64,000 bases of DNA, from the NCBI RefSeq assembly GCF_902713615.1, contig NC_052146.1, positions 309,644,335 through 309,708,334 of the forward strand. The letters run 5' to 3'. The position numbers and the translations under genes were made by a program. The notes under the pieces are model-generated. The model had not been told where the DNA came from. It saw only the letters and a list, made by a program, of their open reading frames with translations, and made no database searches. Positions within the stretch are counted from its first letter, which is position 1. The number at the start of each line of letters is the position of its first letter. The stretch is from Scyliorhinus canicula (taxonomy: Eukaryota). Below are positions 1 through 64,000 of this stretch, one piece after another.

Positions 1-3000
1 CGACCCTGGCATCCGGCACCGACCCCGGCACCCGGCACCGACCCCGGCACCCGGCATCGACCCCGGCACCCGGCATTGACCCCGGCATCCGGCATCGACC
101 CTGGCATCCGGCACCGACCCCGGCACCCGGCACCGACCCCGGCACCTGTCATCGACCCCGGCACCCGGCACCGACCCCGGCACCTGTCATCGACCCCGGC
201 ACCCGGCACCGACCCCGGCACCCGGCATCGACCCCGGCACCGACCCCGGCACCGACCCCGGCATCCGGCACCCGGCACCCGGCATCAACCCCGGCACCCG
301 GCATCGACCCCGGCATCCGGCACCGACCCCGGCACCCGGCATCGACCCCGGCATCGACCCCGGCATCCGGCACCGACCCCGGCACCCGGCATCGACCCCG
401 GCACCGACCCCGGCACCCAGCACCGACCCCAGCACCCGGCAGCGACCCTGGCATCCGGCACCGACCCCGGCACCCGGCACCGACCCCGGCACCCGGCATC
501 GACCCCGGCACCGACCCCGCACCCGGCATCGACCCCGGCACCGACCCCGGCACCGACCCCGGCATCCGGCACCCGGCATCGACCCCGGCACCGACCCCGG
601 CACCCGGCACCGACCCCGGCACCCGGCATCGACCCCGGCACCGACCCCGGCACCCGGCACCGACCCTGGCACCCGGCATCGACCCCGGCATCGACCCCGG
701 CATCCGGCACCGACCCCGGCACCCGGCATCGACCCCGGCACCGCCCCCGGCACCCGGCACCGACCCCGGCACCCGGCATCGACCCCGGCACCGACCCCGG
801 CACCCGGCACCGACCCCGGCACCCGGCATCGACCCCGGCATCGACCCCGGCACCCGGCATCGACCCCGGCATCCGGCACCGACTCCGGCACCCGGCATCG
901 ACCCCGGCACCGACCCCGGCACCCGGCACCGACCCCGGCACCCGGCATCGACCCTGGCATCCGGCACCGACCCCGGCACCGACCCCGGCACCCGGCATCG
1001 ACCCCGGCACCCGGCATCGACCCCGGCATCCGGCATCGACCCTGGCATCCGGCACCGACCCCGGCACCCGGCACCGACCCCGGCACCTGTCATCGACCCC
1101 GGCACCCGGCACCGACCCCGGCACCCGGCACCGACCCCGGCACCTGTCATCGACCCCGGCACCCGGCACCGACCCCGGCACCCGGCATCGACCCCCGGCA
1201 CCGACCCCGGCACCGACCCCGGCATCCGGCACCCGGCACCCGGCATCAACCCCGGCACCCGGCATCGACCCCGGCATCCGGCACCGACCCCGGCACCCGG
1301 CATCGACCCCGGCATCGACCCCGGCATCCGGCACCGACCCCGGCACCCGGCATCGACCCCGGCACCGACCCCGGCACCCAGCACCGACCCCAGCACCCGG
1401 CATCGACCCTGGCATCCGGCACCGACCCCGGCACCCGGCACCGACCCCGGCACCCGGCATCGACCCCGGCACCGACCCCGGCACCCGGCATCGACCCCGG
1501 CATCCGGCACCGACCCCGGCACCCGGCATCGACCCCGGCACCGACCCCGGCATCCGGCACCGACCCCGGCACCCGGCATCGACCCCGGCACCGACCCCGG
1601 CACCGACCCCGGCACCCGGCATCGACCCTGGCATCCGGCACCCACCCCGGCACCCGGCACCGACCCCGGCACCTGTCATCGAACCCCGCACCCGGCATCG
1701 ACCCCGGCACCCGGCATCGACCCCGGCACCCGGCATCGACCCCGGCACCCGGCACCGACCCCGGCACCCGGCACCGACCCCGGCACCGACCCCGCACCCG
1801 GCATCGACCCCGGCACCGACCCCGGCACCCACCCCGGCATCCGGCACCCGGCCCCCGGCATCGACCCCGGCACCCGGCGACGACCCCGGCACCCGGCATC
1901 GACCCCGGCACCGACCCCGGCACCCGGCACCGACCCCGGCACCCGGCACCGACCCTGGCATCCGGCACCGACCCCGGCACCCGGCACCGACCCCGGCACC
2001 TGTCATCGAACCCCGCACCCGGCATCGACCCCGGCACCCGGCACCGACCCCGGCACCCGGCATCGACCCCGGCATCCGGCACCGACCCCGGCACCCGGCA
2101 TCGACCCCGGCACCGACCCCGCACCCGGCATCGACCCCGGCACCGACCCCGGCACCGACCCCGGCATCCGGCACCCGGCACCCGGCATCGACCCCGGCAC
2201 CCGGCATCGACCCCGGCACCCGGCATCGACCCCGGCACCCGGCATCGACCCCGGCATCCGGCACCGACCCCGGCACCCGGCATCGACCCCGGCATCGACC
2301 CCGGCACCCGGCATCGACCCCGGCACCCGGCATCGACCCCGGCATCCGGCACCGACCCCGGCACCCGGCATTGACCCCGGCACCGACCCCGGCACCCGGC
2401 ACCGACCCCGGCACCCGGCATCGACCCCCGGCACCGACCCCGGCACCCGTCATCGACCCCGGCACCGACCCCGGCACCCGGCACCGACCCCGGCACCCGG
2501 CATCGACCCCGGCACCGACCCCGGCACCCGGCACCGACCCCGGCACCCGGCATCGACCCCGGCACCGACCCCGGCACCCGGCATCGACCCCGGCATCCGG
2601 CACCGACCCCGGCACCCGGCATCGACCCCGGCACCGACCCCGGCACCCGGCACCCGGCACCGACCCCGGCACCGACCCCGGCATCCGGCACCCGGCACCC
2701 GGCATCGACCCCGGCACCCGGCATCGACCCCGGCACCCGGCATCGACCCCGGCACCCGGCATCGACCCCGGCACCCGGCATCGACCCCGGCACCGACCCC
2801 GGCACCCGGCACCGACCCCGGCACCCGGCATCGACCCCGGCACCGACCCCGGCACCCGGCATCGACCCCGGCACCGACCCCGGCACCGACCCCGGCACCC
2901 GGCATCGACCCCGGCACCCGGCATCGACCCCGGCACCCGGCATCGACCCCGGCACCCGGCATCGACCCCGGCACCGACCCCGGCACCCGGCATCGACCCC

Positions 3001-3572
3001 GGCACCGACCCCGGCACCGACCCCGGCACCCGGCATCGACCCTGGCATCCGGCACCCACCCCGGCACCCGGCACCGACCCCGGCACCTGTCATCGAACCC
3101 CGCACCCGGCATCGACCCCGGCACCCGGCATCGACCCCGGCACCCGGCATCGACCCCGGCACCCGGCCCCGACCCCGGCACCCGGCACCGACCCCGGCAC
3201 CGACCCCGCACCCGGCATCGACCCCGGCACCGACCCCGGCACCGACCCCGGCATCCGGCACCCGGCACCCGGCATCGACCCCGGCACCCGGCATCGACCC
3301 CGGCACCCGGCATCGACCCCGGCACCGACCCCGGCACCCGGCATCGACCCTGGCATCCGGCACCGACCCCGGCACCCGGCACCGACCCCGGCACCTGTCA
3401 TCGAACCCCGCACCCGGCATCGACCCCGGCACCCGGCATCGACCCCGGCACCCGGCACCGACCCCGGCACCCGGCACCGACCCCGGCACCTGTCATCGAA
3501 CCCCGCACCCGGCATCGACCCCGGCACCCGGCATCGACCCCGGCACCGACCCCGGCACCCGGCATCGACCCC
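1..3572. repeat. GC/CpG-rich satellite of CGACCCCGGCAY (12 nt) and CCGGCAY (7 nt) units, often forming a 19-mer
   Basis: Directly visible irregular tandem array, running off the window start. All long ORFs here are repeat translations. Confidence 0.95.
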
Positions 3573-5271
3573 ATCACCACAAAGTCCCTTTCCTAACATT
3601 CAGGAGCTTTGGCCAAGATTGGGAGAGCTAATTGACAGACAAGTCAAAGAGCAGCCTGACACGGTGATCCTGACACCATCCTTCAATCTGACCTGTCTCA
3701 CCCACAGCGCACACCCAGCTGAGGTGGTGGTGCAGTGGTGTACAGTCGGGAGTGAGGGGTGTCCGGGAATCCTCAATGTTTGTCCCAGAGGAACTGTATG
3801 AACATTGTCTGGATTTCTGTGACAGAGTCAGGGGGAGGGGCCAATGTGACGAGCCGGTACCACAACATGGAGGCAATCAGCTGGTTTATGGCCAGAACTG
3901 GGCCCCTGTGAGACAGCACTCGGAGCAGTCCTGCCCACTCTCTCAGGCGAGCCTTTGCCTCCAGCTCCTGCCAGTTATCCGACCAGGATTCCTCAGCCAG
4001 ATAAAGATGAACTCCCAGGTAGAAGAGGCTGGTCCTGCTCCAGGTGAAAGGCCTGATCTCCCCTGGGAGGGATGTCCATCCGCCCCGGACTGATCCGGCC
4101 CAGTGGATCCAGGGAGGAGAGGCAGCTTCCTCTGCAGGTCAGCAGGGTTCATGAACATGAGGACATGTCATCAGCGGAGGCCAGAAGCACCAGTCCAATA
4201 CCCAGCTGGCACAGAACCAATCCCGACCACCTCCTCCGCAGGAGGCGCTGAACATCAGTTCAACAACAGGAAGACTCCTTCAATCACCACCAGAGGCAAT
4301 GGTTGGGTTCAACAAGCATTGACAAGTTAATTATTTTCTCCTGACTCCAAGTTTCGGGAAGTGCTGTGTGCTTTGAGGAATTAGCTTGCAGTTGCTGCAG
4401 GAAGTTGAGCTGCACATGAGGAAGGTGTGCGTTTGGAATGCCAGCTCTCTGGGCAAACCACTTCACCCTGATTATGGGTCAAGGGTAAGATTCCGCCTTG
4501 GGGAATGGGAGGGAAGTGGAGAAGAGGAAGAGGCACTGCTCATAGAGAGAGGAGGAGGTGGAGGGAGAGAAGGTCTTGTAGCAGGTCACCTTATCCATGC
4601 TGGGTGTTCAGGGAACATGTTCCATATCTCCTGTAGTATCTAGAGTTACGCATGTGTCTGTGGTTCCTGGGGGAGGCCCTCACAGAGATTTACTCCTCTG
4701 GAATCAGATCCACATTCCAGTTCTGTGAAAAGGTCCCTTTGATCCGAAACGTGGTTCCCTCTCCAAAGACACTGCCAGACTTGCTGAGGTTATCCAGCAT
4801 TTTCTGTTTATATTCCATGGGCACCGTGCCCACCACCTGCCCACCCACCCTGACCCCGTCACAATTGTACCCATGGCAAGGGTAATATCAGGAGGCCTAC
4901 CTGTCCACTGGGCCAATGGAGGCCATTAATTGGTCAATCATTTTGCCACCACTGGCATTGAGCCAGTAGCAGGAGAGATCCAAACCTGACCTGCAGCCGG
5001 GCAGCTTTCATTGGATGGGCTGCTGGCGAGCGAGGGGGCTCCTCCTTTATGCTCCCATTAGGCCTATCTAGGCAATGCCCCCAAACTCTTCCCCACATCC
5101 CCTGCCCCCACCCCCCCAGTGAAGTTCCTCATCCTCAAACCATTTCTGTCAATCTTTTCTGCATTTTCTCCAATGTCTTCACGTCCTTTCTAAAGTGTGG
5201 TGCCCAGAACGAGACGCAAACCTCCATTGAGACTGGGCCCGTGATCTATAAAGGTTCAGAAGACCATCCTT

Positions 5272-45439: not shown

Positions 45440-48400
45440 TGCTCAGGGATTCATGCAGCACAGAAAAGGCCCTTCAGCCCATCACATCTCAGCTGGTCAA
45501 ATACACCGAACTATTCCAAACCCATTTCCCAGCGCGTGGCCCAGAGCCTTGTCTGCCCTGGCATTCTAATGCACATTTAAATACTTCTTCAATGTTCCGA
45601 GGGTCTCTGCCTCCACCACCCATTTAGGCAGCCAAACTCCAAACTCCCACCACCCTCTGGGTAAAACCCTCCTGCCCTTTATGCCCTTTATGTTCATTAC
45701 AAAATCCACATATTGTGACAATGAAGGCAAGTACACCAGAAGCCTTCTTAACCACTGTATCCACNNNNNNNNNNNNNNNNNNNNNNNNNNNNNNNNNNNN
45801 NNNNNNNNNNNNNNNNNNNNNNNNNNNNNNNNNNNNNNNNNNNNNNNNNNNNNNNNNNNNNNNNNNNNNNNNNNNNNNNNNNNNNNNNNNNNNNNNNNNN
45901 NNNNNNNNNNNNNNNNNNNNNNNNNNNNNNNNNNNNNNNNNNNNNNNNNNNNNNNNNNNNNNNNNNNNNNNNNNNNNNNNNNNNNNNNNNNNNNNNNNNN
46001 NNNNNNNNNNNNNNNNNNNNNNNNNNNNNNNNNNNNNNNNNNNNNNNNNNNNNNNNNNNNNNNNNNNNNNNNNNNNNNNNNNNNNNNNNNNNNNNNNNNN
46101 NNNNNNNNNNNNNNNNNNNNNNNNNNNNNNNNNNNNNNNNNNNNNNNNNNNNNNNNNNNNNNNNNNNNNNNNNNNNNNNNNNNNNNNNNNNNNNNNNNNN
46201 NNNNNNNNNNNNNNNNNNNNNNNNNNNNNNNNNNNNNNNNNNNNNNNNNNNNNNNNNNNNNNNNGACCTCTTCTAACCCTCCTGACTCCTTGCTTAAGTT
46301 CCTTCCTAATTTCCTTATATTCCACACAGGCTTTGTCTATTCCTAGCCTTCTAGCCCTGACAAATGCCTCCTTTTTCTTTTTGACGAGGGTTACAATATT
46401 TCTCGCTATCCAAGGTTCCCGAAATTTGCCGTATTTATCCTTCTTCCTCACAGTAACATGCTGGTCCTGAATTCCTTTCAACTGACATTCGAAAGCCTCC
46501 CACATGTCAGATGTTGATTTACCCTCAAACATCCACCCCCAATCTAGGTTCTTCAGTTCCCGCCTACTATTGTTATAATTAGCCTGCCCCCAATTTAGCA
46601 CATTCACCCTAGGACCACTCTTATCCTTGTCCACCAGCGCTTTAAAACTTACTGAATTGTGGTCACTGTTCCCGAAATGCTCCCCTACTGAAACTTCTAC
46701 CACCTGGCCGGGCTGATTCCGCAATACCAGGTCCAGTACAGCCCCTTCCCTAGTTGGAATGTCTACATATTGTTTAAAGAAGCCCTATTGGATTCTCCTT
46801 ACAAACTCTGCCATCCAGGCCCCTAGCACTAAGTGAGTCCCAGTCAATATTGAGGAAGTTGGAGTCTCCCTGAAGTCTTCCTGATCGCTACCCATATAGC
46901 CTCACTGCCCTCTGAGGTGTCCTCCCTTAGTACAGCTGTGATATTCTCCCTAGCCAGTAGCGTAACTCCGCCATCCCTTTTACATCCCCCTCTATCCTGC
47001 CTGAAACATCTAAATTCTGGAACGTTTAGCTGCCAATCCTGTCCTTCCCTCAACCAGGGGCGGGATTCTCTGACCCCCCTGCCGTGTCGGAGAATCGCTG
47101 GGGGCCAGCTTCAATCCCGCCCCCACCGTGTCCCGAATCCTCTGCCACCAGAGATTCGGCGGGGGCGGGAATCGCGCCGCACCAGTCGCCGCCCCCCCCC
47201 CCCGGCGATTCTCCAAAGTCCCGCCGCTGTCAAGCCACTCCCGCCGGCGGGAATCAAAACACCTACCTGACAGGCGGGACTGGCGGCGCGGGCGGGCTCC
47301 GGGGTCCTGTGGGGGGCACGGAGCAATCTGGTCTCGGGAGGTGCCCCCAGGGTGGTCTGGCGCGCGATCGGAGCACACCGATCGGTGGGCGGGCCTGTGC
47401 CGTGTTGGCGTTAGTACCAATATGTACAACAACCTCTGCCTGTTTGCCCTCCCCCTTCAGGATGCCCGCTAGCCATTCGGAGACATCCTGGACCCTGGCA
47501 CCAGGGAGGCAGCATACCAACCTGGAGTCTCTTTCACGTCCACAGAAGCGTCTATCTGTGCCCCTGACTATAGAATCCCCTATGACTATTGATCTTCTGC
47601 GCTTTGACCCTCCCTGCTGAGCATCAGAGGCAGCCATGGTGCCACTGCTCTGGCTGCTGCTGTTTCCCCCTGATAGGCTATCCCCCCCCGACAGTATCCA
47701 AAGGGGTATACCTGTTCGAGAGGGGGACAACCACAGGGGATTCCTGCACTGACTGCCTGCCCCTTCTGGTGGTCACCCATTTCTCTGCCTGCACCTTGGG
47801 TGTGACCACATTTATATAACTGCTATCTATGACGCTTTCCGCCACCTGCATGCTCCTCAGTGCATCCAACTGCTGCTCCAACTGAACCATGTGGTCGGTG
47901 AGGAGCTCCAGTTGGGGGCACTTTCTGCAGATGAAGCCATCCGGGATGCTGGAAGCCTCCCGGATCTGCCACATCTCACAGTCAGGGCACTGCACCCCTC
48001 TAATTGACATTCCGTCAATTAATTAGTAAATTACATTTTAAACATTTTAAAAAGAAATTTACTGTTAACTATATGTTTTCTAGCACTAGATTTCTACTAT
48101 AAATGTGAAAGCTAAATACCTCTGGCTTAGATACCCCTCTAAATTATAATTAAGTGATTATGTTTAATTAGTTTAACAATGCTTAATTTTTAAATTTAGT
48201 GTTGACTCCCAACCAGCCAATAGGTCAAAGCTTTACTGTTATGTCACTTCAGTTTCACCCCCCCCCCCACCTCCCCCAAACACAATTTGGAAAGGTAATA
48301 AGTAGAAAAATGAATTAAAATCACGTAACTTCCCAGGTTCTCAGATGCTCTCTGGTTGTTTCCCTGCAGATTAAAAGTTGCAGGTCAGAAGAAAGAGAGA

Positions 48401-51184: not shown

Positions 51185-51616
51185 TGTGGTGATATAACCA
51201 CTGTAGTTATGCGTACTTGCAGTAGGGGGATGTATGCCTGTACCTGTAATACAGGTTCCTCCGGTAAGCCCCTGGCGGCTAGCTCCGCCCACAGGGAGCT
51301 TGTGTATAAATATGCATGTGAGTCACTCAGACCTTTAGTCTACAGTTGCAGATGGAGGGACAGCATCGTACAACAATAAAGCCTCTATTGTACTAGTCTC
51401 TCGGCTTTGAGTATAATTGTTAGTGCTACAATTTATTGTTGTACAATTTCCCATTCACCATGGACATCAGAATCAAGCCTGACCGTCTGCAGCTGGATCC
51501 GCAGTCGCCTCATGCCAGAAAAGACTTTGTTCACTGGCTTGCAGTCTTTGAGGCCTACATCTCTTCAGCGGACCCTCCCCCGATGGTGGCTCAGAAAACG
51601 CAACTCCTGTACTCCA

Positions 51617-54600
51617 TGTCGTGATTGTAGATTTGACTAGATGCAATACAACTGAGCAAACACTAGAGGGAGCACGGGAGAGCTATAAATGCACCGGGAC
51701 AGGAAGTGAGGACAGACTTCATGGAAGGCAGAACTCGTAGCAGGACAGACACACGAGCAGGCAGCATTTGAGGTAGCCGTAAGTTAAGCTCTGAAGAGAG
51801 AACGAATTCACAATAAAGCATCTTCTCCACATTTGAGACTATGAGCTTTATTAAGACACGAGGAACAACACATGGTACCAGCAGTGGCTTCAGACGCTTA
51901 CTACAGGACAACTCAGCTGCAGATACAGAAAGAACAAAATGCCATGGAAATCTCCTACTGGACATTCGACTTGGGAAGACATCGCTGATTGGAGGATGTG
52001 GCTTGGATACCCACCTCAGCTGGACACGACCGGCAATGTAAGAAATGTCTGGAAAATGTTTAAACAATGGTTCGATTTATATATCATAGCTAATGATTGT
52101 TGCACGTTTTACTATGGGCGTAAAACGCGTTTATTGGAGTGTATTAACACGCCTCCGAGTTCGACGTGTGCTTAACACTACTAGGCTCTGTTCTATGTAA
52201 TTATTTAGCTCTTGAGTCGCCAGTTGCCGTCTAGGCAACGTCACAAGTATTCCAAGGTCAAGTTCAAAGTAATAAAGACGATACACCGATTAGTAAAGTT
52301 CAAACGATCAATATTTATTATACAGTTATAATAAATACTCATGCACACACTAAGAGACTAAGCTATAACTAAACTTAAGTGAACAGAATACTTATCTAAC
52401 AGGAACAGGCAAGGTCAGAGAACGAGGCCTTCATCCTGGTTTTGTACTGCAGCCTTCAGCAAGCGTTCTGGTACTTGGGAGTCTAGTGGGCTTGGATCGC
52501 GTAGCGAGCGTTGAACTTACGGTTTCGGCGGCTGGTGCTCAACGGCTGGAGTCAGGATGCAAGATGTCAGTCAGAGCCGGAGCACGAGTTTAACAGACCG
52601 GGCTCTGTGGGGAATTTGCTTTTATACCCCTCTCTAATGTCCTTGCCCCCTTCTAGGCGGGCTCTACCTTTCGGTACCGATTGGAACGTTTCCAAACGGC
52701 TACCTTCGAAATCCTCCAATGCGGGGCTTCCCTCGATGTTGGGGGGTGGTTTCGATATTCGTTACTCTGGTGCCATCCTGTCTGCTCCACCAATTAAGTG
52801 CTACATTGAGATGGAAATGTTGCCATTGTGTGTGCCTGGATCTGGGCCGCCTCATCAGAATGTTAAGCGCTTTGCCATTAACACCTTTGGCTTGGAGATC
52901 TGCACCTGGCCAGAAAACTGGTTTGCTGCTTGCAAAATGCTAATTAGTTGAGAGCAGGCTGTCTGTTCTCACTAAACAGGCTTTCCCTGCTGTCTTCCAT
53001 TTTAGTTTGGCTCAGTGTCCATTTTGCGTGGCCAGCATGGCTACATGATGTAGCAGCAGCCTCAGACGAAATTAAAATGGCAATGCTCATCGCAGGACAT
53101 GAAGCTAGGAAAGTTTATAATGGATTTAAATACTCAAAAGATGAAGACAGCAACAGCTTACAAACAATACTAAACAAATTTGAAGAGTAATGTAAGAAAT
53201 TTGAACAGCAAGGCATGCTCAGAGGCCAAACTGCACAGAGACTGAGTGATGCAAAACTTAAACAATCACAAAAAGAACAAGAAATCGCGAGTGAAAAGTA
53301 CAGATCAAAAAGAAGAAATAACTTGAATTTTTCACACAGCCACAATGCTGAAATCCAGTCCAGATTGAAAGGAAAAGGTAACTTACAACTTTCAGAAAGA
53401 AAAAACGCTGAAATCCATGATAAAATGGCGTCCGATCACATTTTACAGTCTCGGGCAGACAAACTATAAACTGCGTCTGCGCATGCGCAGGGAACGGAAG
53501 CCGCGCATGCGCTGTTACAATCACCCGTTTATCGTTATCAGTTTAAAAAAGTTCGAGTTACTGATCATTATGCGCATGCGCAATCTCAAAATGTTTTGGT
53601 CGCGGATCGTTATGCACACGCGTAAGCCGCGCATGCGCAGTGGACACAAAACCGCAGAGTGAAGGAAGGCCGATTTGCGCATGCGCAATTGATTCCTACG
53701 CATGATGTCATGAGCGTCATGACGTCTGAACATCCAGACCGCGCCTACTTAAAAGGGAAATGCCCGAAAATTGAAAACAAGATACTTAAAGCGGTAAAAC
53801 CAAACTTTCTTGCCTCAGAAGACAAAAAAACGCCTGAACTTAAACCAACAGTTAAAAACAACTTGCACAACACCCTGGAAAAAGCAGTCTGCACCACCCA
53901 AAGTGAAGAGAACAAAAAGAATTCCGAAACAACAAAAGATAATTTGTTTTTCGAAAATTACTACTCAGACATGGCTGAGTTATCGGATATGCTGATCACA
54001 GCATCAGCGACACGGTCGCAAAGCTCAACACGAATCTACTCGTGGTAGATGAATCCAACCAAGGTGATTTGGTTTTTGAAGAATACTACTCAGACATGGC
54101 TGAGTTATTCGGATATGCTGATCACAGCATCAGCGACACGGTCGCAAAGTTCAACACAAATCTACTCGTGGTAGATGAATCCAACACCATGGTGCCATGG
54201 CAGATCGTCGATACATTGGATGACAGCAATACCCAAGACCAAGACGACGCCATACAGAGAGCACAGAAAGACTCCACAGAGTGAGCGATGACAGGCTCCA
54301 CAGTGCGAGTGATGAAAGACTCCAAAAGGGAAGCAAGCAAACACTCCCTGGCAAACACCATGCATGAACAAGACCATGAAGGTCAACCCACTGTATCTGA
54401 GCAACCGCAACAGACCATGAAAGTCTACCAAGCTCACATAAACAAGAAGAAGACAATGTACATCTACCCACTGCATGCGAAAACAGTGACAAGGTGATCA
54501 CACTCAACGTACAGGATCACAGCGAGACTGACAGTTCTCAGCTTGTCTGTACAGAAGCACAGAGTCGGGCCACCCAAGAGTCCAGTGAGACCATGCCAAA

Positions 54601-55967
54601 AGAAACCATGCAGATTTTGATGCAGGAAGAGGAGCACCAAGAGTCCAGAGTGACCGCGTCAAATGAAATCGTGAAGAATTTGACTCCAGAAGAGGAGCAC
54701 CAAGAAAGCAAAGATGAGGAATCAAATCCACCACAAATGACTGATGTCACCAGCATCAATGCAACATCAGATCAGTCTCACCATTCTCGAGACGAAACGT
54801 TCAATGCAACAAATTCCACAAAGGACAGTCGCACCAATAACTGTGACAATGACTCAAATTATCCACACGGGACACTCATTGAGCATAACAAGGAAAACGA
54901 AAGCCAAAAGAAGCACAGCAGAAACGAGAACAACAACAGCAAGAACAAAAGCAACATGAAGCGCGACAAGAACAACAAAAATCACAAGAAGCACTGCAGA
55001 AACAAGAACAACAGCACCAACAAAAACTACAAGCACAACGACAAAAACTACAAGAAGAACAACAAAACTAACAAGAAGCATAACAAAGATAGCGATAACA
55101 ACAAAGACAGAAACGACAAAAACAGCAACAAGAACGGCAACGAAAACAACAAAGACAAGAATGACAGAAACAACAGCAATGAAACAATGACTTGTACAAA
55201 ATAGTACAACTCTGCACATGAAGGACAATGCCACAGCACACTGCAAAACAATGACAAGACTACAAACATGCCATGGGATGACAACGAATCGCACAAACTC
55301 ACATCTGCTACAGAACAAGCAAGCATACCAGCTTTCAAGGCAGATGAAATAATAAATCGATACAACAAGCACAAAAAAAAGTCCATGTCAGTCAACATCA
55401 GTGGTTCGACCATGCAAACACCTCGGGATGACGCAATGGTTACTTAAAATAACAAGGAACACCAACAACATTCACAACTGAGTTGCAATATCAATATCAC
55501 CACGTCAGCAACAACAAAAGAAAAGAACTCTGAACAAATTCATCAAGTTTGGATTCATAAATGTTTTATTAAGATTGGACTCATAAATATAAATTGGCTT
55601 TGTAAAATATGCAATAGCACCATCTCTTGTATAGATACACATTTCATAAGTAACTGTTTTGTACAATTTTCTTTAACGATGTACAGAAAATATGTAAAGA
55701 AAAAAGGGGGATGTCGTGATTGTAGATTTGACTAGATGCAATACAACTGAACAAACACTAGAGCGAGCACGGGAGAGCTATATATACACAGGGACAGGAA
55801 GTGAGGACACACTTCACGGAAGGCAAAACTCGTAGCAGGACAGACACACAAGCAGGCAGCATTTGAGGTAGCCGTAAGTTAAGCTCTGAAGAGAGAACGA
55901 ATTCACAATAAAGCATCTTCTCCACATTTGAGACTACGAGCTTTATTAAGACACGAGGAACAACACA
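51617..55967 (+). mobile_element. Non-autonomous Gypsy element B (256-bp LTRs, gag remnant, low-complexity interior, no pol)
   Basis: LTRs 51617-51872 and 55712-55967, TSD CTCCA, PBS TGGTACCAG and PPT AAAGAAAAAAGGGGGA. Confidence 0.92.
52098..53045 (-). mobile_element. Solo LTR C (948 bp), related to the LTR of the tandem element
   Basis: TGTTGC...GGCTACA termini with a 4-bp TSD TGAT. Removing it restores B gag (IIAND-VAAASDEIK). Shares long blocks with 56317-57212. Confidence 0.9.
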
Positions 55968-57597
55968 CTCCAGACTTAGCTCCAGTGTCTTTCCGCTAAT
56001 TCGAGATGTGACTGACTACACCACAGCTATGGAACTGCTCAAGGAGAACTATGCACCGTCGGCGAACACCCTGTTTCTACTCACGTCCAGCAGCCGGGTG
56101 AGTCGATTGAGGACTTCTGGAGGGCCCTTATACCTCTGGTACGAGACTGCGACTGCCGGGCCCTCACAGCCACGGAACATTCTGATTTACTTATGCGCTA
56201 TGTCTTTCTTACTGGCATTGCATCGGATCCCATCCGGCAATGACTGCTGGAAGGGGCCGCCCAGACCTCACGGCAGCAAAAGCCCTGGCGCTTTCCATGA
56301 CGGCCGCCTCCCATAGCGTTGCTCGTTTTAAGTAAGTGTGCTTAACACTCACTTGGCTCTGTTTCTCTCTCTATGCTCTGGAGTCGCCAGGTGCCAGAAC
56401 AGACACCGTCACAAGTATCAAGGTCAAGTTCAAAGTAATAAAGCTATACACCAATTAGTAAGTCCAAACAGTTAGAGTTTATTATAACAATTATAATAAA
56501 TACTCATGCACACGCTAAAGACTAACTTACTTCTGCCATTAAACGACTAATACTTATCTAAGAAGGAACAGGCAAGGTCAGGGAACAAGGCCTTCGTTCC
56601 GTTCTGGTCTGCAACTTCTTGTTACTACTGGTCGGCACGGGTATAAGTAATGCCTGGGTCAAGGTAGCGATCGTCGTTTGGCACTTACTTATCGATGGCT
56701 GCTGCTCGACGGCTGGTGTAAAAGACAGGAGTCTGGAGGCCGGAGACAGGAGACTGAACCATGTGCAGGACCTTTTTTTATAGGTCCCAGGAGGTCCGTG
56801 CCCCTTGGGGCGGGCTTCCTCACCTGCTGGGGATCGATTGGGCCATTTCCCAATCGATATGATTTGAACCCCCCTATCCTAGGGCCGTTCCTTGATGGCT
56901 GGGGCGGTTCTTTGAACTCATTGTCCTGGCTTCGCTGGCTCCATCGTGTCTGCTTCGCTATTGAAAGTATCGATTGATACTTGAGTGCATCTATTGTGCC
57001 CGGGACTGTCCCGGTATCACCTCATTAATATGTAAACTGTTTTCCCATTTACTGCGCTGCCTGAACTCTGCAGCTGTGGGGAAACAGGTTTTTGCAAGTG
57101 TCTCCATGCTGAAAGCTTCGGCAAGCTGTTTGCTCTTTACTATGTCCGTTTTTCCCTGCATTCTTTGCAGTCTTCCATTTTGTGTTACCAGTGGCCATCT
57201 TAGACGGCTACACTCCCTCCTTGTGATCCTCTCGAGAAATTGTGAAGGATCACCTATGTACGGTTCCTTTGTGTTCCTTTGGGTTCCCTGTGTTCTTTTG
57301 GGTTCCCTGACCTTAGCGAGTTCCAGGGCGTCTACTCTGTCCTTAACTATGGCACAGATTTTTAGCTAACATTTCTCTAATTGGCACTATGTCAAAGGGG
57401 ACATGCATTACCAATAATCGGAAACCTCTACCTATCGAAACAACTACTCTCGTCTTACTTTTAAAACATCCTATCACATTCTAAAATCTTACTCATTCAT
57501 ACCACAGTACATCTTGCTTTCTGACTCGGCAGTCGAGCACAGAACAATATAATCCATCCGTAATCCTTTTATTTACAGATCGCATTAAATAAATCTC

Positions 57598-57942
57598 TTA
57601 CACATCAAGGGGTTGGGGGGATTGGTGAAAACCGAAAATAGGGGATTGAACTCCGTAAATAGTTGAGGGGCAAGAGCGGGAGGCTCTCCTTTTCCATTTC
57701 CTCAACCTGAGGGTCTGCACTATGATGCAGAGAATTGCAATCACCAAAAGTGATTCAATTATATACGCCAGCGAGTACCAGGTCATGAATTTGGTGCACC
57801 AGGTCTGAACCTCACTGTTCATCGCGGAGCATGGAGAAGTCGGTGTGTGGGAAACATTAACGGCGGGGGTCATGGGGGAAACATGGTTTGCATCTGCGCG
57901 CAACAATACAACAACAATAAATAGAAATATGTAGGCTTCCAT
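57598..57942 (-). CDS. 114-aa type I membrane protein (signal peptide, short ectodomain, one TM, polybasic tail) in the env position
   Basis: Strong Kozak context ACCACGATGG. Sequence blocks: MEAYIFLFIVVVLLRADA, NVS sequon, C-x10-C, WYSLAYIIESLLVIAILCIIVQTL, RLRKWKRR. The frame is open upstream to 58200. Confidence 0.7.
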   Translation of the reverse strand: MEAYIFLFIVVVLLRADANHVSPMTPAVNVSHTPTSPCSAMNSEVQTWCTKFMTWYSLAYIIESLLVIAILCIIVQTLRLRKWKRRASRSCPSTIYGVQSPIFGFHQSPQPLDV

Positions 57943-58894
57943 CGTGGTCTTCTTTCTTCTCTTCCTTCTCTGCCTTTTGTATGGCTGATCTTGCTGTGAT
58001 CCCTCCTTCGACTGTTCGAAAGCTATGGGATCAAGCACAGTATCTGTCAATACATAGTTTAATATCTGTAATGTTAGTGTATCTGTCCTCTCATTCCAAT
58101 TGTCCCTTAAATGAATGGCCAAGTCACACCCTGTGACTCCCCTCATTTTTTTTTTCAAATGCGAATTTAGGACCAGACATACACCTAACAACTTTTCCAC
58201 TGCGAGCCGTCTCGCAGGCTTTGCGATTTACCATCCGAATGTTCCTGGATGTAAATAGCATGTGGGATGGCTGCCGATGGGCTACCTATAGAAAAATGAA
58301 AGCAAAGTTTGGAACAAAAAGGTCGAATGAGTTGCGTGTGGGCCGCTACGGGTAAGGTTTGAATGGGATCTCCTGGTAAGGCGTGCTGTGCTGTACCCGA
58401 GCTTAGCTGACCAAAAGGGGGGGTCCTCAGACAGGGCGGGTGCTCAATGCCGTTTCTCCACTGCCAGAGCAACCTGAAATGAACGGGCAAGAATGTAGTC
58501 ATAGTGGAATTGCAGCCTCTATTCCCAGAATAGAGGGGCACCTAAAAAAACAAGGGAGGAGCCAAGATGCTCCAACATCTACAAACAGAAGACAAGTCGT
58601 GAACATTGTCGGTTCACCAGAGGATATTTAAATTGAGTGAAGTTCTCAGAAGTATCTGCGGATTAACTAACGTGCATGTGAGGTGGTCACAAGCTTTTCA
58701 GCTGAAAAGGAAGTGGCCAATCTCCAAACAAACATTTTACAAAAACAAACAAAACATACGTGCAGGTTCCATCAGTGGTGGCGTGGGGCTGTGAAAAGCT
58801 GTTTAAATTTAAACACTGAACATTTAACAAACACATACAAACAAACATGCAACGAATATCGTACAGGTTCCATCAGACAGAAGGATACCGTAAA

Positions 58895-60946
58895 TTACAT
58901 TTGGCTTGGGGTGTAACTAGCATATGGAGTCAGTGCAGTGTGACCGAAGAAGAGAGGAAGGAGAGAAACAAAAATGAACTGGCATTGCTGAGGTATCCCT
59001 ACCATGAGAAGTGGTGGGTAAGCGCTGATAGTTTGCATGGGGCAGCTGGCACCTTGTAGCTGCTGTGGGTGGTGTTCTCTTTCATATCTGGGGGCGGGTC
59101 TAGCTGGTGCTGGGGGTCTCCTGCAATCTCGGGCGAAGTGTCCTGGCTGCCGACAGTTGTAACATGACCCCTGAGGCACATAAGGCGGAGCAGGCACTCT
59201 GGTGCATTGTTCCCTTGTGTACTGTTCCCTGAGTGGGGGGTCTGGGCTGTTGGTTTCGTTGCTGCTTCGGGGGGCATTGGTGGGCTGATTCTGTTGCTGT
59301 TTGGGGGGGGGGGCTTGACATTCTCGAGCGTAATGTCCTAATTGTCCATAGTTAAAACATTCCTGTGACTTGGTCTGCTGTGGGCCGTTCCTTCCCTCAT
59401 TTACACATGCTGGGTTTTGATGTGTTTTAACTGGATTCATGTCTGCATCTGCCTGCTCTTCCTTGGGATTTATAAATGCTATTATATTGTGGACGGATTG
59501 CTGCCAAACGCGGGACAATCTTTTCAAGACCCATTTTTCATTTTGGGCCTCTTCTGAGGGGTCATAATTGCTGCAGACATTCTGTCCTGCATCTGTGGCA
59601 TGGGAGATTATGGTGCGGGTCCATTTAACCATATTGTCTCGGTTTAAATGTGCGCGGTCTAATTCGCCAAAATCGGCAGTGAAATGAATCCACAGCCTTC
59701 CTGCGAATGCTGTGGGATGCTCTGTCCTCTTCTGCCTACATTTATTTAGGCCTTCGACTAGGTCTCCTCTATGGTACCCTATCGTGTCTAAAATGGATGT
59801 TTGCATCTCCTCTAGTGTGCCTCCTCCAACGTTCTGTGGGTCGGGGAGGGCTGCAACTACCGATGGGTCTAAACTCAAAACAGTGAGCTTAACCTGCTCT
59901 CTTTCATCCAGGCCATACATGGTAGCCTGCTGTTTTACCTTTGCGAAAAATTGGTGAGGGTCTGCGGTGGGGAGAAACGGGGTGATTTTCTCACACGCAT
60001 CCCTGAGTTGCGTTACAGTTAAGGGGGTGGTGTAGGTAACCTCGGGTGCGCCGTCTGTGGTTGCCTTTCTTTGGGTGGTGACTGGGTTCATAGGTGCGGG
60101 TGCTATCTGATCTGTGGGGGGTTGGGGTGCTTTCCTCTTTTGTTGCGCTGCTGGCGCACATGTTCCCTGAACATAGCGCTGCGCTGTCTCCCTCAGTTCC
60201 TGCCAGCCTGGGGCATTTTTCTCATCTAACTGTGTTCCAAAGGTGCTTTGGAACCCATTCTGCACTGAAAGCAGAGATTGCAGCTCTGCAATCTGCTTCC
60301 TACACTTTGCGTGGTCCACTGTGCTCTGTCTTTGTTCTGTGGTGGCAGCGTGGTGTGGTCTTAAAGCTGCCTTTAGGTCAGAGCATTGCCTCTGCAATGC
60401 CTCTACCTGCTTTTCTGATTCATCTCGTATCAGGACTGCACGTTGCACATCCTGATAGGCTTTTTCGTATTGTGTCTGGGAACTGCTCAGATGGGCTAGA
60501 CACGACTGATGTGCCCTCTTGGCATCATCTACCTCTCTACCCTTCTCTGCCAGCTTCCCTCTTAGCTCGAGGTTTTCCTTTTCGATGTCCCTGACATCCA
60601 CTTTACTCATTCTGTTTCGTTCCTCTAACTCTACTCGGAGCGTCCGAACGACCTCCTCAATGCCTCGCAACTGTGCCAAACAGGACACGATTGCCATCGG
60701 CTTGCGTGCTTTACTTAGATTTTTCTTATGAATTTGAGAGAGGTTCTCCCACCAAGTATGTTCTATTCTCCCGGGACCTGTCTCCTCATTCATACTAAAC
60801 TCATTCCAAAGGGGCCATCCTTTCCCTTTTAGATACTTGCGGAGTTCCAGCTCCCATACGGGACACTGGCCTACTCTGCTACTGCTGATCGCTGCGACCA
60901 AGGACTGCTCTGGATTCATGAGGTGTTCCATTGCCTGCATGGCCAT
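58895..60946 (-). CDS. gag: Gag polyprotein, 683 aa (coiled-coil, capsid-like region, two zinc knuckles)
   Basis: Intact ORF about 280 nt after the PBS. Knuckles are CFNYGQLGHYAREC (degenerate) and CYNCRQPGHFARDC. No protease or RT follows. Confidence 0.85.
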   Translation of the reverse strand: MAMQAMEHLMNPEQSLVAAISSSRVGQCPVWELELRKYLKGKGWPLWNEFSMNEETGPGRIEHTWWENLSQIHKKNLSKARKPMAIVSCLAQLRGIEEVVRTLRVELEERNRMSKVDVRDIEKENLELRGKLAEKGREVDDAKRAHQSCLAHLSSSQTQYEKAYQDVQRAVLIRDESEKQVEALQRQCSDLKAALRPHHAATTEQRQSTVDHAKCRKQIAELQSLLSVQNGFQSTFGTQLDEKNAPGWQELRETAQRYVQGTCAPAAQQKRKAPQPPTDQIAPAPMNPVTTQRKATTDGAPEVTYTTPLTVTQLRDACEKITPFLPTADPHQFFAKVKQQATMYGLDEREQVKLTVLSLDPSVVAALPDPQNVGGGTLEEMQTSILDTIGYHRGDLVEGLNKCRQKRTEHPTAFAGRLWIHFTADFGELDRAHLNRDNMVKWTRTIISHATDAGQNVCSNYDPSEEAQNEKWVLKRLSRVWQQSVHNIIAFINPKEEQADADMNPVKTHQNPACVNEGRNGPQQTKSQECFNYGQLGHYARECQAPPPKQQQNQPTNAPRSSNETNSPDPPLREQYTREQCTRVPAPPYVPQGSCYNCRQPGHFARDCRRPPAPARPAPRYEREHHPQQLQGASCPMQTISAYPPLLMVGIPQQCQFIFVSLLPLFFGHTALTPYASYTPSQM

Positions 60947-62164
60947 TTCCTCCTTCTGTCTTAATTTTGAACAGGGGATGTTCTGGTAATGTTTTAAAAG
61001 ACGGGTAATGCTTTTGCTATGTTCCGCTTAAAAACCCACGACAGTTTGTCGCAACAAAAATCTCTCAGGTTAACCTTACAACCCTGTTAGTTACGCATGC
61101 ACAAACCACACTTCCGAATTATCGTTATTGGTTTGAACTCCTTGAACACTTGTGATATTTCCTTTTTCCCAATTAGATTTCCAATTCAAATTTCTGGGTT
61201 CTCTCGGAGTGGGGGGGCCACTTCTAATCGAATCCCGGCTGATGTCGCCACTAAATGTTGCTCGTTTTATGTAAGTGTGCTTAACACTCACTTGGATCTG
61301 TTTCTCTCTCTATGCTCTGGAGTCGCCAGGTGCCGTAACAGACACCGTCACAAGTATCAAGGTCAAGTTCAAAGCAATAAAACTATACACCAATTAGTAA
61401 GTCCAAACAGTTAGAGTTTATTATAACAATTATAACAAATACTCATGCACACGCTAAAGACTAACTTACTTCTGCCATTAAACGACTAATACTTATCTAA
61501 GAAGGAACAGGCAAGGTCAGGGAACAAGGCCTTCGTTCCGTTCTGGTCTGCAACTTCTTGTTACTACTGGTCGGCACGGGTATAAGTAATGCCTGGGTCA
61601 AGGTAGCGATCGTCGTTTGGCACTTACTGATCGATGGCTGCTGCTCGACGGCTGGTGTAAAAGACAGGAGTCTGGAGGCTGGAGTCGGAGGCCGGAGACA
61701 GGGGATTGAACCATGTGCAGGACCTTCTTTTATTGGTCCCAGGAGGTCCGTGCCCCTTGGGTCGGGCTTCCTCACCTGCTGGGGATCGATTGGGCCTTTT
61801 CCCAATCGATATGATTTGAACCCCCCTATCCTAGGGCCGTTCCTTGATGGCTGGGGCGGTTCTTTGAACTCATTGTCCTGGCTTCGCTGGCTCCATCGTG
61901 TCTGCTTCGCTATTGAAAGTATCGATTGATACTTGAGTGTATCTATTGTGCCCGGGACTGTCCCGGTATCACCTCATTAATATGTAAACTGTTTTCCCAT
62001 TTACTGCGCTGCCTGAACTCTGCAGCTGTGGGGAAACAGGTTTTTGCAAGTGTCTCAATGCTGAAAGCTTCGGCAAACTGTTTGCTCTTTACTATGTCCG
62101 TTTTTCCCTGCATTCTTTGCAGTCTTCCATTTTGTGTTACCAGTGGCCATCTTAGACGGCTACA

Positions 62165-64000
62165 CTCCCTCCTTGTGATCCTCTCGAGAAATTGTGAAGG
62201 ATCACCTATGTACGGTTCCTTTGTGTTCCTTTGGGTTCCCTGTGTTCTTTTGGGTTCCCTGACCTTAGCGAGTTCCAGGGCGTCTACTCTGTCCTTAACT
62301 ATGGCACAGATTTTTAGCTAACATTTCTCTAATTGGCACTATGTCAAAGGGGACATGCATTACCAATAATCGGAAACCTCTACCTATCGAAACAACTACT
62401 CTCGTCTTACTTTTAAAACATCCTATCACATTCTAAAATCTTACTCATTCATACCACAGTACATCTTGCTTTCTGACTCGGCAGTCGAGCACAGAACAAT
62501 ATAATCCATCCGTAATCCTTTTATTTACAGATCGCATTAAATAAATCTCTTACACATCAAGGGGTTGGGGGGATTGGTGAAAACCGAAAATAGGGGATTG
62601 AACTCCGTAAATAGTTGAGGGGCAAGAGCGGGAGGCTCTCCTTTTCCATTTCCTCAACCTGAGGGTCTGCACTATGATGCAGAGAATTGCAATCACCAAA
62701 AGTGATTCAATTATATACGCCAGCGAGTACCAGGTCATGAATTTGGTGCACCAGGTCTGAACCTCACTGTTCATCGCGGAGCATGGAGAAGTCGGTGTGT
62801 GGGAAACATTAACGGCGGGGGTCATGGGGGAAACATGGTTTGCATCTGCGCGCAACAATACAACAACAATAAATAGAAATATGTAGGCTTCCATCGTGGT
62901 CTTCTTTCTTCTCTTCCTTCTCTGCCTTTTGTATGGTTGATCTTGCTGTGATCCCTCCTTCGACTGTTCGAAAGCTATGGGATCAAGCACAGTATCTGTC
63001 AATACATAGTTTAATATCTGTAATGTTAGTGTATCTGTCCTCTCATTCCAATTGTCCCTGAAATGAATGGCCAAGTCACACCCTGTGACTCCCCTCATTT
63101 TTTTTTTCAAATGCGAATTTAGGACCAGACATACACCTAACAACTTTTCCACTGCGAGCCGTCTCGCAGGCTTTGCGATTTACCATCCGAATGTTCCTGG
63201 ATGTAAATAGCATGTGGGATGGCTGCCGAAGGGCTACCTATAGAAAAATGAAAGCAAAGTTTGGAACAAAAAGGTCGAATGAGTTGCGTGTGGGCCGCTA
63301 CGGGTAAGGTTTGAATGGGATCCCCTGGTAAGGCGTGCTGTGCTGTACCCGAGCTTAGCTGACCAAAAGGGGGGGTCCTCAGACAGGGCGGGTGCTCAAT
63401 GCCGTTTCTCCACTGCCAGAGCAACCTGAAATGAACGGGCAAGAATGTAGTCATAGTGGAATTGCAGCCTCTATTCCCAGAATAGAGGGGCACCTAAAAA
63501 AACAAGGGAGGAGCCAAGATGCTCCAACATCTACAAACAGAAGACAAGTCGTGAACATTGTCGGTTCACCAGAGGATATTTAAATTGAGTGAAGTTCTCA
63601 GAAGTATCTGCGGATTAACTAACGTGCATGTGAGGTGGTCACAAGCTTTTCAGCTGAAAAGGAAGTGGCCAATCTCCAAACAAACATTTTACAAAAACAA
63701 ACTAAACAGACGTGCAGGTTCCATCAGTGGTGGCGTGGGGCTGTGAAAAGCTGTTTAAATTTAAACACTGAACATTTAACAAACACATACAAACAAACAT
63801 GCAACGAATATCGTACAGGTTCCATCAGACAGAAGGATACCGTAAATTACATTTGGCTTGGGGTGTAACTAGCATATGGAGTCAGTGCAGTGTGACCGAA
63901 GAAGAGAGGAAGGAGAGAAACAAAAATGAACTGGCATTGCTGAGGTATCCCTGCCATGAGAAGTGGTGGGTAAGCGCTGATAGTTTGCATGGGGCAGCTG
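62165..64000 (-). mobile_element. Unit 2 of the same element, sharing LTR 61256-62164 and running off the window
   Basis: Repeats 57213-59048 at an offset of 4952 with only scattered substitutions. Includes the 3' end of gag (63847-64000). Confidence 0.93.
62550..62894 (-). CDS. Second copy of the 114-aa membrane protein (identical translation)
   Basis: ORF track 62550-63152. It differs from copy 1 only by one residue (L>F) upstream of the Kozak ATG. Confidence 0.7.
   Translation of the reverse strand: MEAYIFLFIVVVLLRADANHVSPMTPAVNVSHTPTSPCSAMNSEVQTWCTKFMTWYSLAYIIESLLVIAILCIIVQTLRLRKWKRRASRSCPSTIYGVQSPIFGFHQSPQPLDV

Follow-up and report, generated by a model that had tools for sequence, protein, structure and literature searches.

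A pol-less satellite, its env-less helpers and a small predicted membrane-protein gene in a likely SnRV-like endogenous retrovirus family of the catshark Scyliorhinus canicula

How a retroviral element that encodes neither a polymerase nor an envelope might spread, and what a tiny membrane protein could do for it in the place of env, are the questions raised by a long terminal repeat (LTR) element in a 64,000-nucleotide (nt) stretch of the Scyliorhinus canicula genome (hereafter the window; coordinates are positions in this stretch, and the whole element lies on its minus strand). The element carries an intact gag and a small open reading frame (ORF) for a protein of 114 residues. In its anatomy and in its relation to pol-bearing elements of the same genome, it is very probably a pol-less, gag-keeping satellite of these helpers, and the small ORF is a family-wide gene under purifying selection. 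As to function, we favour, with a probability of roughly 0.4 for the statement as a whole, an env-less family of endogenous retroviruses (ERVs) related to snakehead retrovirus (SnRV), whose Pol is borrowed by the satellite and whose 114-residue predicted glycoprotein may stand in for Env in cell-to-cell transfer.

A pol-less satellite and its pol-bearing helpers

The gag ORF (58895..60946, minus strand) encodes 683 residues free of interruptions, as the initial annotation had read it, and comprises a coiled coil, a capsid-like region with Retrotrans_gag/Ty3_capsid-like features (feature atlas score of 0.91–0.95), two zf-CCHC zinc knuckles, the first of which is degenerate in the window copy, and a satellite-specific C-terminal extension. 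Gag is under purifying selection, with a dN/dS of 0.08–0.22 over codons 1–545; its AlphaFold model has a confidence (pLDDT) of only 40, and its only homologs are Scyliorhinus torazame models of 70–79% identity. The reported lack of protease, reverse transcriptase (RT) and integrase was borne out by a tblastn search of the window element with helper Pol, which found no pol (best E 0.38). At the site of the helper gag stop and pol lies a ~535-bp block (58775..59310, minus strand), a marker of the pol-less lineage, which gives Gag its second knuckle and a tail of its own, with a stop common to several copies, and for which no source was found. Over 58895–59310, the pol-less Gag has this extra knuckle and a C-terminal segment that is mildly hydrophobic (Kyte-Doolittle (KD) value of 1.5 for the best 19-mer), whereas the helpers are without both.

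The 4.2-Gb S. canicula genome was searched at the DNA level with the small ORF (2761 candidates), the satellite block (1676) and an RT segment (3205); these totals are not copy numbers, with 40 candidates scored per search. The scored matches to the satellite block are spread over many contigs in elements spanning 5.7–6.0 kb, with pol absent from all 17 loci picked by the block. The pol-less copies have their own 4-bp target site duplications (TSDs), exact in six of eight, with one mismatch in one and no duplication in another, as has the pol-less locus L037, and 4-bp matches are present in most copies with readable ends, pol-less and pol-bearing alike.

Pol-containing relatives with similar LTRs, which the initial annotation had suggested seeking, were found in the same genome, within which alone gene order was read. 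Of the 28 loci outside the window that the DNA of the small ORF had picked out, 22 were extended, with 20 carrying pol, L037 having the short structure of the window element, and L033 being truncated. Full-length helpers of ~9.7–10.1 kb are arranged as LTR, gag, UGA-CGG stop, pol, ~0.95 kb of non-coding DNA, small ORF, polypurine tract (PPT) and LTR, with a pol domain order of protease, RT, tether, RNase H and integrase, and with gag, UGA-CGG and pol in frame in all seven copies inspected. UGA-CGG is a type II readthrough context, tabulated for Venezuelan equine encephalitis virus (VEEV) and Colorado tick fever virus (CTFV) (PMC13517186). No env was found in any copy read, the interval from pol to LTR being filled by the ~0.95 kb of non-coding DNA and an ORF of 114–118 residues; a genome-wide profile search with PF00523 gave 0 matches and is uninformative, as its controls were likewise unmatched. 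A young subfamily with paired LTRs 99.9–100% identical shows an unchanged gene order, with a small protein 72% identical. Helper and satellite LTRs are 85–95% alike, and the earlier proposal of helper dependence is supported by the presence in one genome of helpers with matching LTRs, primer binding site (PBS) type and 4-bp TSD. The membrane protein had been taken for a special feature of the satellite, which it is not, with the pol-bearing helpers carrying the same gene, also without env.

Divergence among pol-less pairs is 2–4% in the block, a figure biased low by the selection of these loci for block likeness, compared with 11–17% in the gag core and 16–40% in the small ORF, and trees of the 3' region and of gag both have the pol-less copies interleaved with helpers. 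This combination of low block divergence with high gag and small-ORF divergence points to repeated template switching between satellite and helpers, as co-packaging would give.

The best matches to the helper Pol are anuran and coelacanth proteins (41–48% identity), and a maximum-likelihood RT tree (44 of 46 rows, two being dropped for short RT overlap), which held no labelled SnRV, foamy or lokiretrovirus row, places the helper among the coelacanth and anuran Pols and separates it from Ty3/Gypsy and from ERVs of gamma/epsilon-like type. SnRV itself was compared by eye only, via the alignment supplement of PMC7947760, with a hand count giving 32 of 53 identities between the first RT block of the helper and SnRV, the closest of the rows seen, and 22 of 53 with murine leukaemia virus (MuLV, MLV); the motif GSWRLTIDYR occurs three times in this supplement, and both of the passages shown are SnRV rows. 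Judged by these sequences, the family is likely an SnRV-like ERV. ERVs often lose env, and its absence does not exclude the family from the RT-defined SnRV clade. SnRV and SnRV-clade ERVs resemble the family in RT, readthrough of a gag-pol stop, dual RNase H and a small spliced 3' gene, and such ERVs are already known from sharks, including lineage I of the elephant shark CmiERV, as well as from coelacanth and amphibians (PMC12193657, PMC4422223, PMC4977317). In contrast to SnRV, the catshark copies read are without env and have UGA-CGG in the place of UAG-GGC, and the family has one selected signal-peptide/transmembrane (TM) micro-protein in the env position, a high copy number and a pol-less satellite.

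The initial annotation recognised no such family, although beyond the SnRV-like relationship gag-only satellites are also known, for example Bik-2 in zebrafish and ENS-1 in chicken. The BHIKHARI elements Bik-1 and Bik-2 and ENS-1 likewise combine a coiled-coil and capsid Gag with the absence of pol; Bik is related to lokiretroviruses, with Bik-2 lacking both pol and env, whereas the catshark satellite adds a membrane-protein gene and a zinc knuckle (PMC12067270). Lokiretroviruses share dual RNase H, a coiled-coil Gag and aquatic vertebrate hosts with the catshark family, but their RT rows read PFGYANSP (31 occurrences) where the catshark RT reads PQGFHNSP, and their Env is long and paramyxovirus F-like (PF00523), with no such Env in the catshark copies read (PMC7947760). 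An assignment to the lokiretroviruses, our first reading, was dropped on account of these motifs and of the SnRV-like ones; the lokiretrovirus survey scores the cartilaginous fishes that it shows, S. torazame, C. milii and R. typus, as negative (PMC7947760). A foamy-like assignment was also set aside, with near-equal Pol scores against the RT of foamy virus, MLV and Ty3 (233, 232 and 225 bits respectively) and no foamy row in the tree. A CCHC Gag and a readthrough pol are unlike foamy viruses. One catshark ERV, ERV-Spuma.0-Sca, has been called foamy-like (PMC10699275).

A small gene under purifying selection

The small ORF (57598..57942, minus strand) is a family-wide gene under purifying selection, as seen in 91 aligned copies including that of the window (of 114 loci tried, the others not spanning the ORF in one piece). 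Between subfamilies, dN/dS is 0.17–0.43 over the ORF, 0.06–0.18 over residues 48–79 and 0.06–0.33 over the tail, compared with 0.61–1.56 for the 68 codons upstream, and six single pairs, which are not independent of each other, give 0.14–0.28 (bootstrap upper bounds ≤0.46) for the ORF and 0.64–1.03 for the upstream codons. The signal is missing from the other frames apart from an antisense one, which shares third positions. In two sets of copies picked without regard to the ORF, its net indel length is divisible by 3 in 14/22 and 12/13 copies, with flank values of 8/22, 7/19 and 5/18 for the former and 4/13, 1/10 and 7/13 for the latter. Constraint is strongest in the amphipathic, Trp-rich membrane-proximal helix, the TM segment and the polybasic patch, and among the 31 copies of a divergent group, shared variants give 0.18 compared with 0.63 for singletons. 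The ORF is therefore neither disrupted nor neutral across copies, and its origin as a chance fusion left by deletion of env from a single copy was rejected, as the ORF is kept across the family, helpers included. The 114-residue start called in the initial annotation stands; an in-frame upstream ATG at 58146 would give 182 residues, a start that we rejected because the 68 added codons look neutral and the ATG is missing from all 31 divergent copies.

A predicted branch point and 3' splice acceptor (58023..58050, minus strand; AG at 58024–58023) lie ~80 nt upstream of the ORF, with the branch-like motif and AG present in all six subfamily groups and followed by a purine-rich run without an ATG until the start codon. 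The gene models P0113 and P0114 cease to match the genome exactly at the acceptor AG, and these ends may be taken as independent, model-based support for the acceptor. Two stranded oligo-dT runs have reads over the 3' region on the element-sense strand, mostly from copies 90–95% alike. In the single-cell run X20, reads over 58371–59030 are mostly opposite to the gag reads, which suggests antisense RNA or internal priming. The non-coding stretch at 58210–58470 (element ~3700–3960) diverges between subfamilies by 7–19% in most bins, below the synonymous sites of the ORF, and is likely a cis RNA element. RNAalifold on the 3' non-coding region gives negative z-scores against column shuffles, too weak a control for any conclusion.

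The encoded protein has a predicted signal peptide (residues 1–18), called from hydropathy only on an N-terminal hydrophobic core (10-mer KD of 2.3–3.9) and small residues at −3/−1, followed by the sequon N29-x-S31, a Trp-rich amphipathic segment (48–56) containing C49, a TM segment that starts at about 57, ends at about 75 to 78 and contains E63, a polybasic patch and a conserved tail. Ser, Thr and Pro make up 45% of the ectodomain, six of the first 10 tail residues are basic, and the combination of short ectodomain, single TM and polybasic motif is found in each of 14 aligned copies. Across the 91 copies, the near-invariant positions are N29, S31, W48, C49, W55, Y60, E63, S64, the basic patch, Y96 and a Pro-Ile-Phe segment. 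These features predict a type I membrane glycoprotein with a surface topology.

A word-based homolog search with the protein gave no match, a Pfam scan nothing above cut-off, the feature atlas only matches below 0.9, and Foldseek against viral structures, a check proposed at the outset, no E <0.001. Four homologs came out of a profile search over 1.84 billion representatives, two from S. canicula and two from S. torazame, all of them gene models and none an Env. The S. torazame homolog, 43% identical, is likewise of the short form. Database models at L188 (C3:214.09M), L185 (C1:121.13M) and P0116 have other exons spliced onto the small-ORF exon, and in one S. torazame model this exon forms the TM and tail of a HEPACAM2-like Ig protein, possibly through exaptation or as a prediction artefact.

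Possible roles of the 114-residue protein

Two known groups of small membrane proteins invite comparison. [quoted passage not shown] FAST proteins also have no cleaved signal peptide and adopt a type III topology, in contrast to the predicted signal peptide and glycosylation sequon found here. The sORF2 proteins of the Drosophila MDG1 clade (412, Stalker2) are likewise short, selected, single-TM proteins of env-less LTR elements, with an ectodomain of about 30–40 residues, an amphipathic segment and a polybasic patch (PMC11952523). Their parent elements are Metaviridae whilst the catshark family belongs to the Retroviridae, and sORF2 is mostly N-myristoylated and unspliced (PMC11952523), whereas the catshark gene has a splice acceptor and its product a sequon, a glutamate within the TM and a predicted signal peptide, with no sequence similarity detected. 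With a predicted signal peptide and a sequon but neither a myristoylation site nor a conserved cystine noose, the protein is not a member of either group.

In the reading that we favour, satellite RNA would make Gag, helpers would supply protease, RT and integrase in trans, and mixed particles would carry helper Pol together with satellite RNA. A spliced RNA would encode the glycosylated, signal-peptide-bearing type I protein, which, by analogy with the insect elements, might act as an Env substitute, allowing Gag particles to enter an adjacent (germ) cell directly. This role is suggested by the position of the gene in the env slot behind an env-style acceptor, by the constraint on the membrane-proximal helix, TM and basic patch, and by the insect precedent of sORF2, with env-less insect LTR elements shown to transfer capsids from soma to oocyte and to encode sORF2, sometimes downstream of pol (PMC11952523). 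In a bolder form, which seems to us unlikely, a vertebrate lineage of the Retroviridae would have exchanged env for a signal-peptide micro-fusogen of 114 residues, an invention independent of FAST and sORF2 and the third of its kind. Catsharks would then owe thousands of copies to soma-to-germline spread by this means, alongside a satellite, with gag and the micro-fusogen, that trades modules with its helpers.

A number of observations weigh against an Env-substitute role. Gly2, as needed for myristoylation, is absent from all 14 copies compared, and C38 is kept in only 40/91 copies compared with 90/91 for C49; the C-x10-C loop noted in the initial annotation is thus present in the window copy of a real ORF but is not a family trait, and the argument for FAST likeness built on it is not supported. 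The signal peptide, the near-invariant sequon (N29 in 90/91 and S31 in 91/91) and the Ser/Thr/Pro-rich stalk are unlike both FAST and sORF2, and the predicted structure has no tail helix past residue 90, being coil with pLDDT <50 from residue 91. No leader-to-ORF splice joint is listed in four RNA runs, so that the spliced LTR-to-ORF reads anticipated earlier did not appear, a weak negative as most reads come from copies only 90–95% alike. Shared variants among 27 window-like copies are no more constrained than singletons (0.65 compared with 0.60), and since most ORF divergence predates the satellite block, selection is shown for the family and not specifically for the pol-less lineages. Even for sORF2, the requirement for fusion is given as not determined (PMC11952523). 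Moreover, the polar TM face of E63 (90/91), Y60 and S64 and the conserved Y96-x-x-Q99 could serve signalling, or the binding of a partner, just as well. Amplification within cells, with no membrane protein, is known for env-less ERVs.

These last points lead to a somewhat unlikely alternative, in which the element moves intracellularly and the protein is a host-modulating accessory glycoprotein, pairing through C49 and the polar TM face near E63, either with a second copy of itself or with a membrane protein of the host, and signalling or trafficking through its tail, such that expressing cells become more permissive or less visible. Vpu, papillomavirus E5 and DAP12/CD3-zeta have layouts of this kind, and a type I glycoprotein layout is usual among viral accessory proteins. 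The conservation of C49 (90/91), E63 (90/91), S64 (91/91), Y60 (89/91), Y96 (90/91) and Q99 (87/91) and the tail dN/dS of 0.06–0.33 fit such a role, as do the small spliced accessory ORFs of 52, 94, 76 and 205 residues in SnRV (PMC12193657), although no sequence or fold match to such proteins was obtained (atlas matches all <0.9), and the benefit to an element replicating in the germline is not obvious. Rather less probable is the derivation of the protein from an old Env, reduced to its signal peptide, membrane-proximal region, TM and tail and serving as a non-fusing anchor that steers Gag to the budding or assembly membrane. The env position and env-like acceptor, the possession of Env by SnRV-clade viruses, and the retention of exactly those parts expected to be left by an ectodomain deletion are consistent with this; however, all four profile matches among the 1.84 billion representatives are catshark models and none is an Env, no open frame among the scored S. 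canicula matches is longer than 265 residues, and S. torazame has the short form too, in a homolog that is 43% identical.

Passive carriage, whereby the ORF mattered only in helpers or in the past and pol-less copies re-acquire their 3' end by recombination, we consider improbable. The mosaic distances among pol-less pairs, their scattered placement among helpers in the trees of gag and of the 3' region, and the slight constraint among close window-like copies would all follow from it, but it leaves the job of the protein in helpers unexplained, is compatible with the other readings, and sits poorly with the identical 114-residue proteins encoded by both window units despite a unit divergence of 2.3%. 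No account of the small gene was found in the literature covered, which left out most subscription papers and Repbase.

The locus and what the family offers

The complete cis-elements reported at the outset, namely both LTRs, PBS and PPT, are all confirmed in the window. The 5' LTR (61256..62164, minus strand; 909 bp, TG...CA) is separated by a 5-nt spacer from the PBS (61233..61250, minus strand), which, read by eye, is of tRNA-Arg(TCT) type and slightly diverged in the window copy; the PBS is an exact 18-nt tRNA-Arg(TCT) complement in copies L168, L169 and L178, and a tRNA-Arg(TCT) gene complementary to it is present in the S. canicula genome. tRNA-Arg is the SnRV primer. The PPT (57213..57222, minus strand) adjoins the LTR boundary at 57212, and the 3' LTR (56317..57212, minus strand), 98.0% identical to the 5' LTR, is followed by a 4-bp target duplication at 56313–56316.

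The span first assigned to the element, 56317..62164, is a real LTR-bounded unit but is one half of a three-LTR tandem, with 62164 being the end of the middle LTR, which also serves as the 3' LTR of the adjoining unit, and the third LTR ending at window-equivalent 67000. The second unit (62165..64000, minus strand) includes a PPT, a small protein (62550–62894) identical to that of the first unit and the 3' end of gag, which is interrupted in this unit. All three LTRs are 96.2–98.0% alike, the internal regions are 97.7% identical, and a 4-bp TSD with one mismatch brackets only the complete tandem and not a single unit. The tandem probably arose by unequal crossing-over of LTRs, though it may alternatively be a false haplotype duplication in the assembly. 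A divergence of 2–4% corresponds to about 5–9 million years by d/2u at the mammalian rate used in PMC7947760, and this age would be ten times higher if the shark rate assumed in PMC4422223 applies.

Nearby, a solo LTR (52098–53045) is 99.4% identical to the young subfamily already described, in which pol is present and LTR pairs are 99.9–100% alike; this suggests recent activity. It lies in a region of nested insertions (51460–56316), within an element with 257-bp LTRs (51616–51872 and 55711–55967) that splits a gag fragment, which we take to be Gypsy-like, and the tandem is inserted in the same fragment. The window begins with a GC-rich (79%), strongly skewed stretch (1–4000), and has a 500-base N gap at 45765–46264.

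The usual view of env-less ERVs is that they are retrotransposons confined to the cell interior, for which a membrane protein would be superfluous, whereas this vertebrate ERV, itself env-less, has retained a tiny protein of surface type, with a membrane core under as much constraint as Gag. The family therefore offers a cheap and direct test of whether vertebrates have Env-independent cell-to-cell transfer, as in insects, or whether this is a new retroviral accessory protein.

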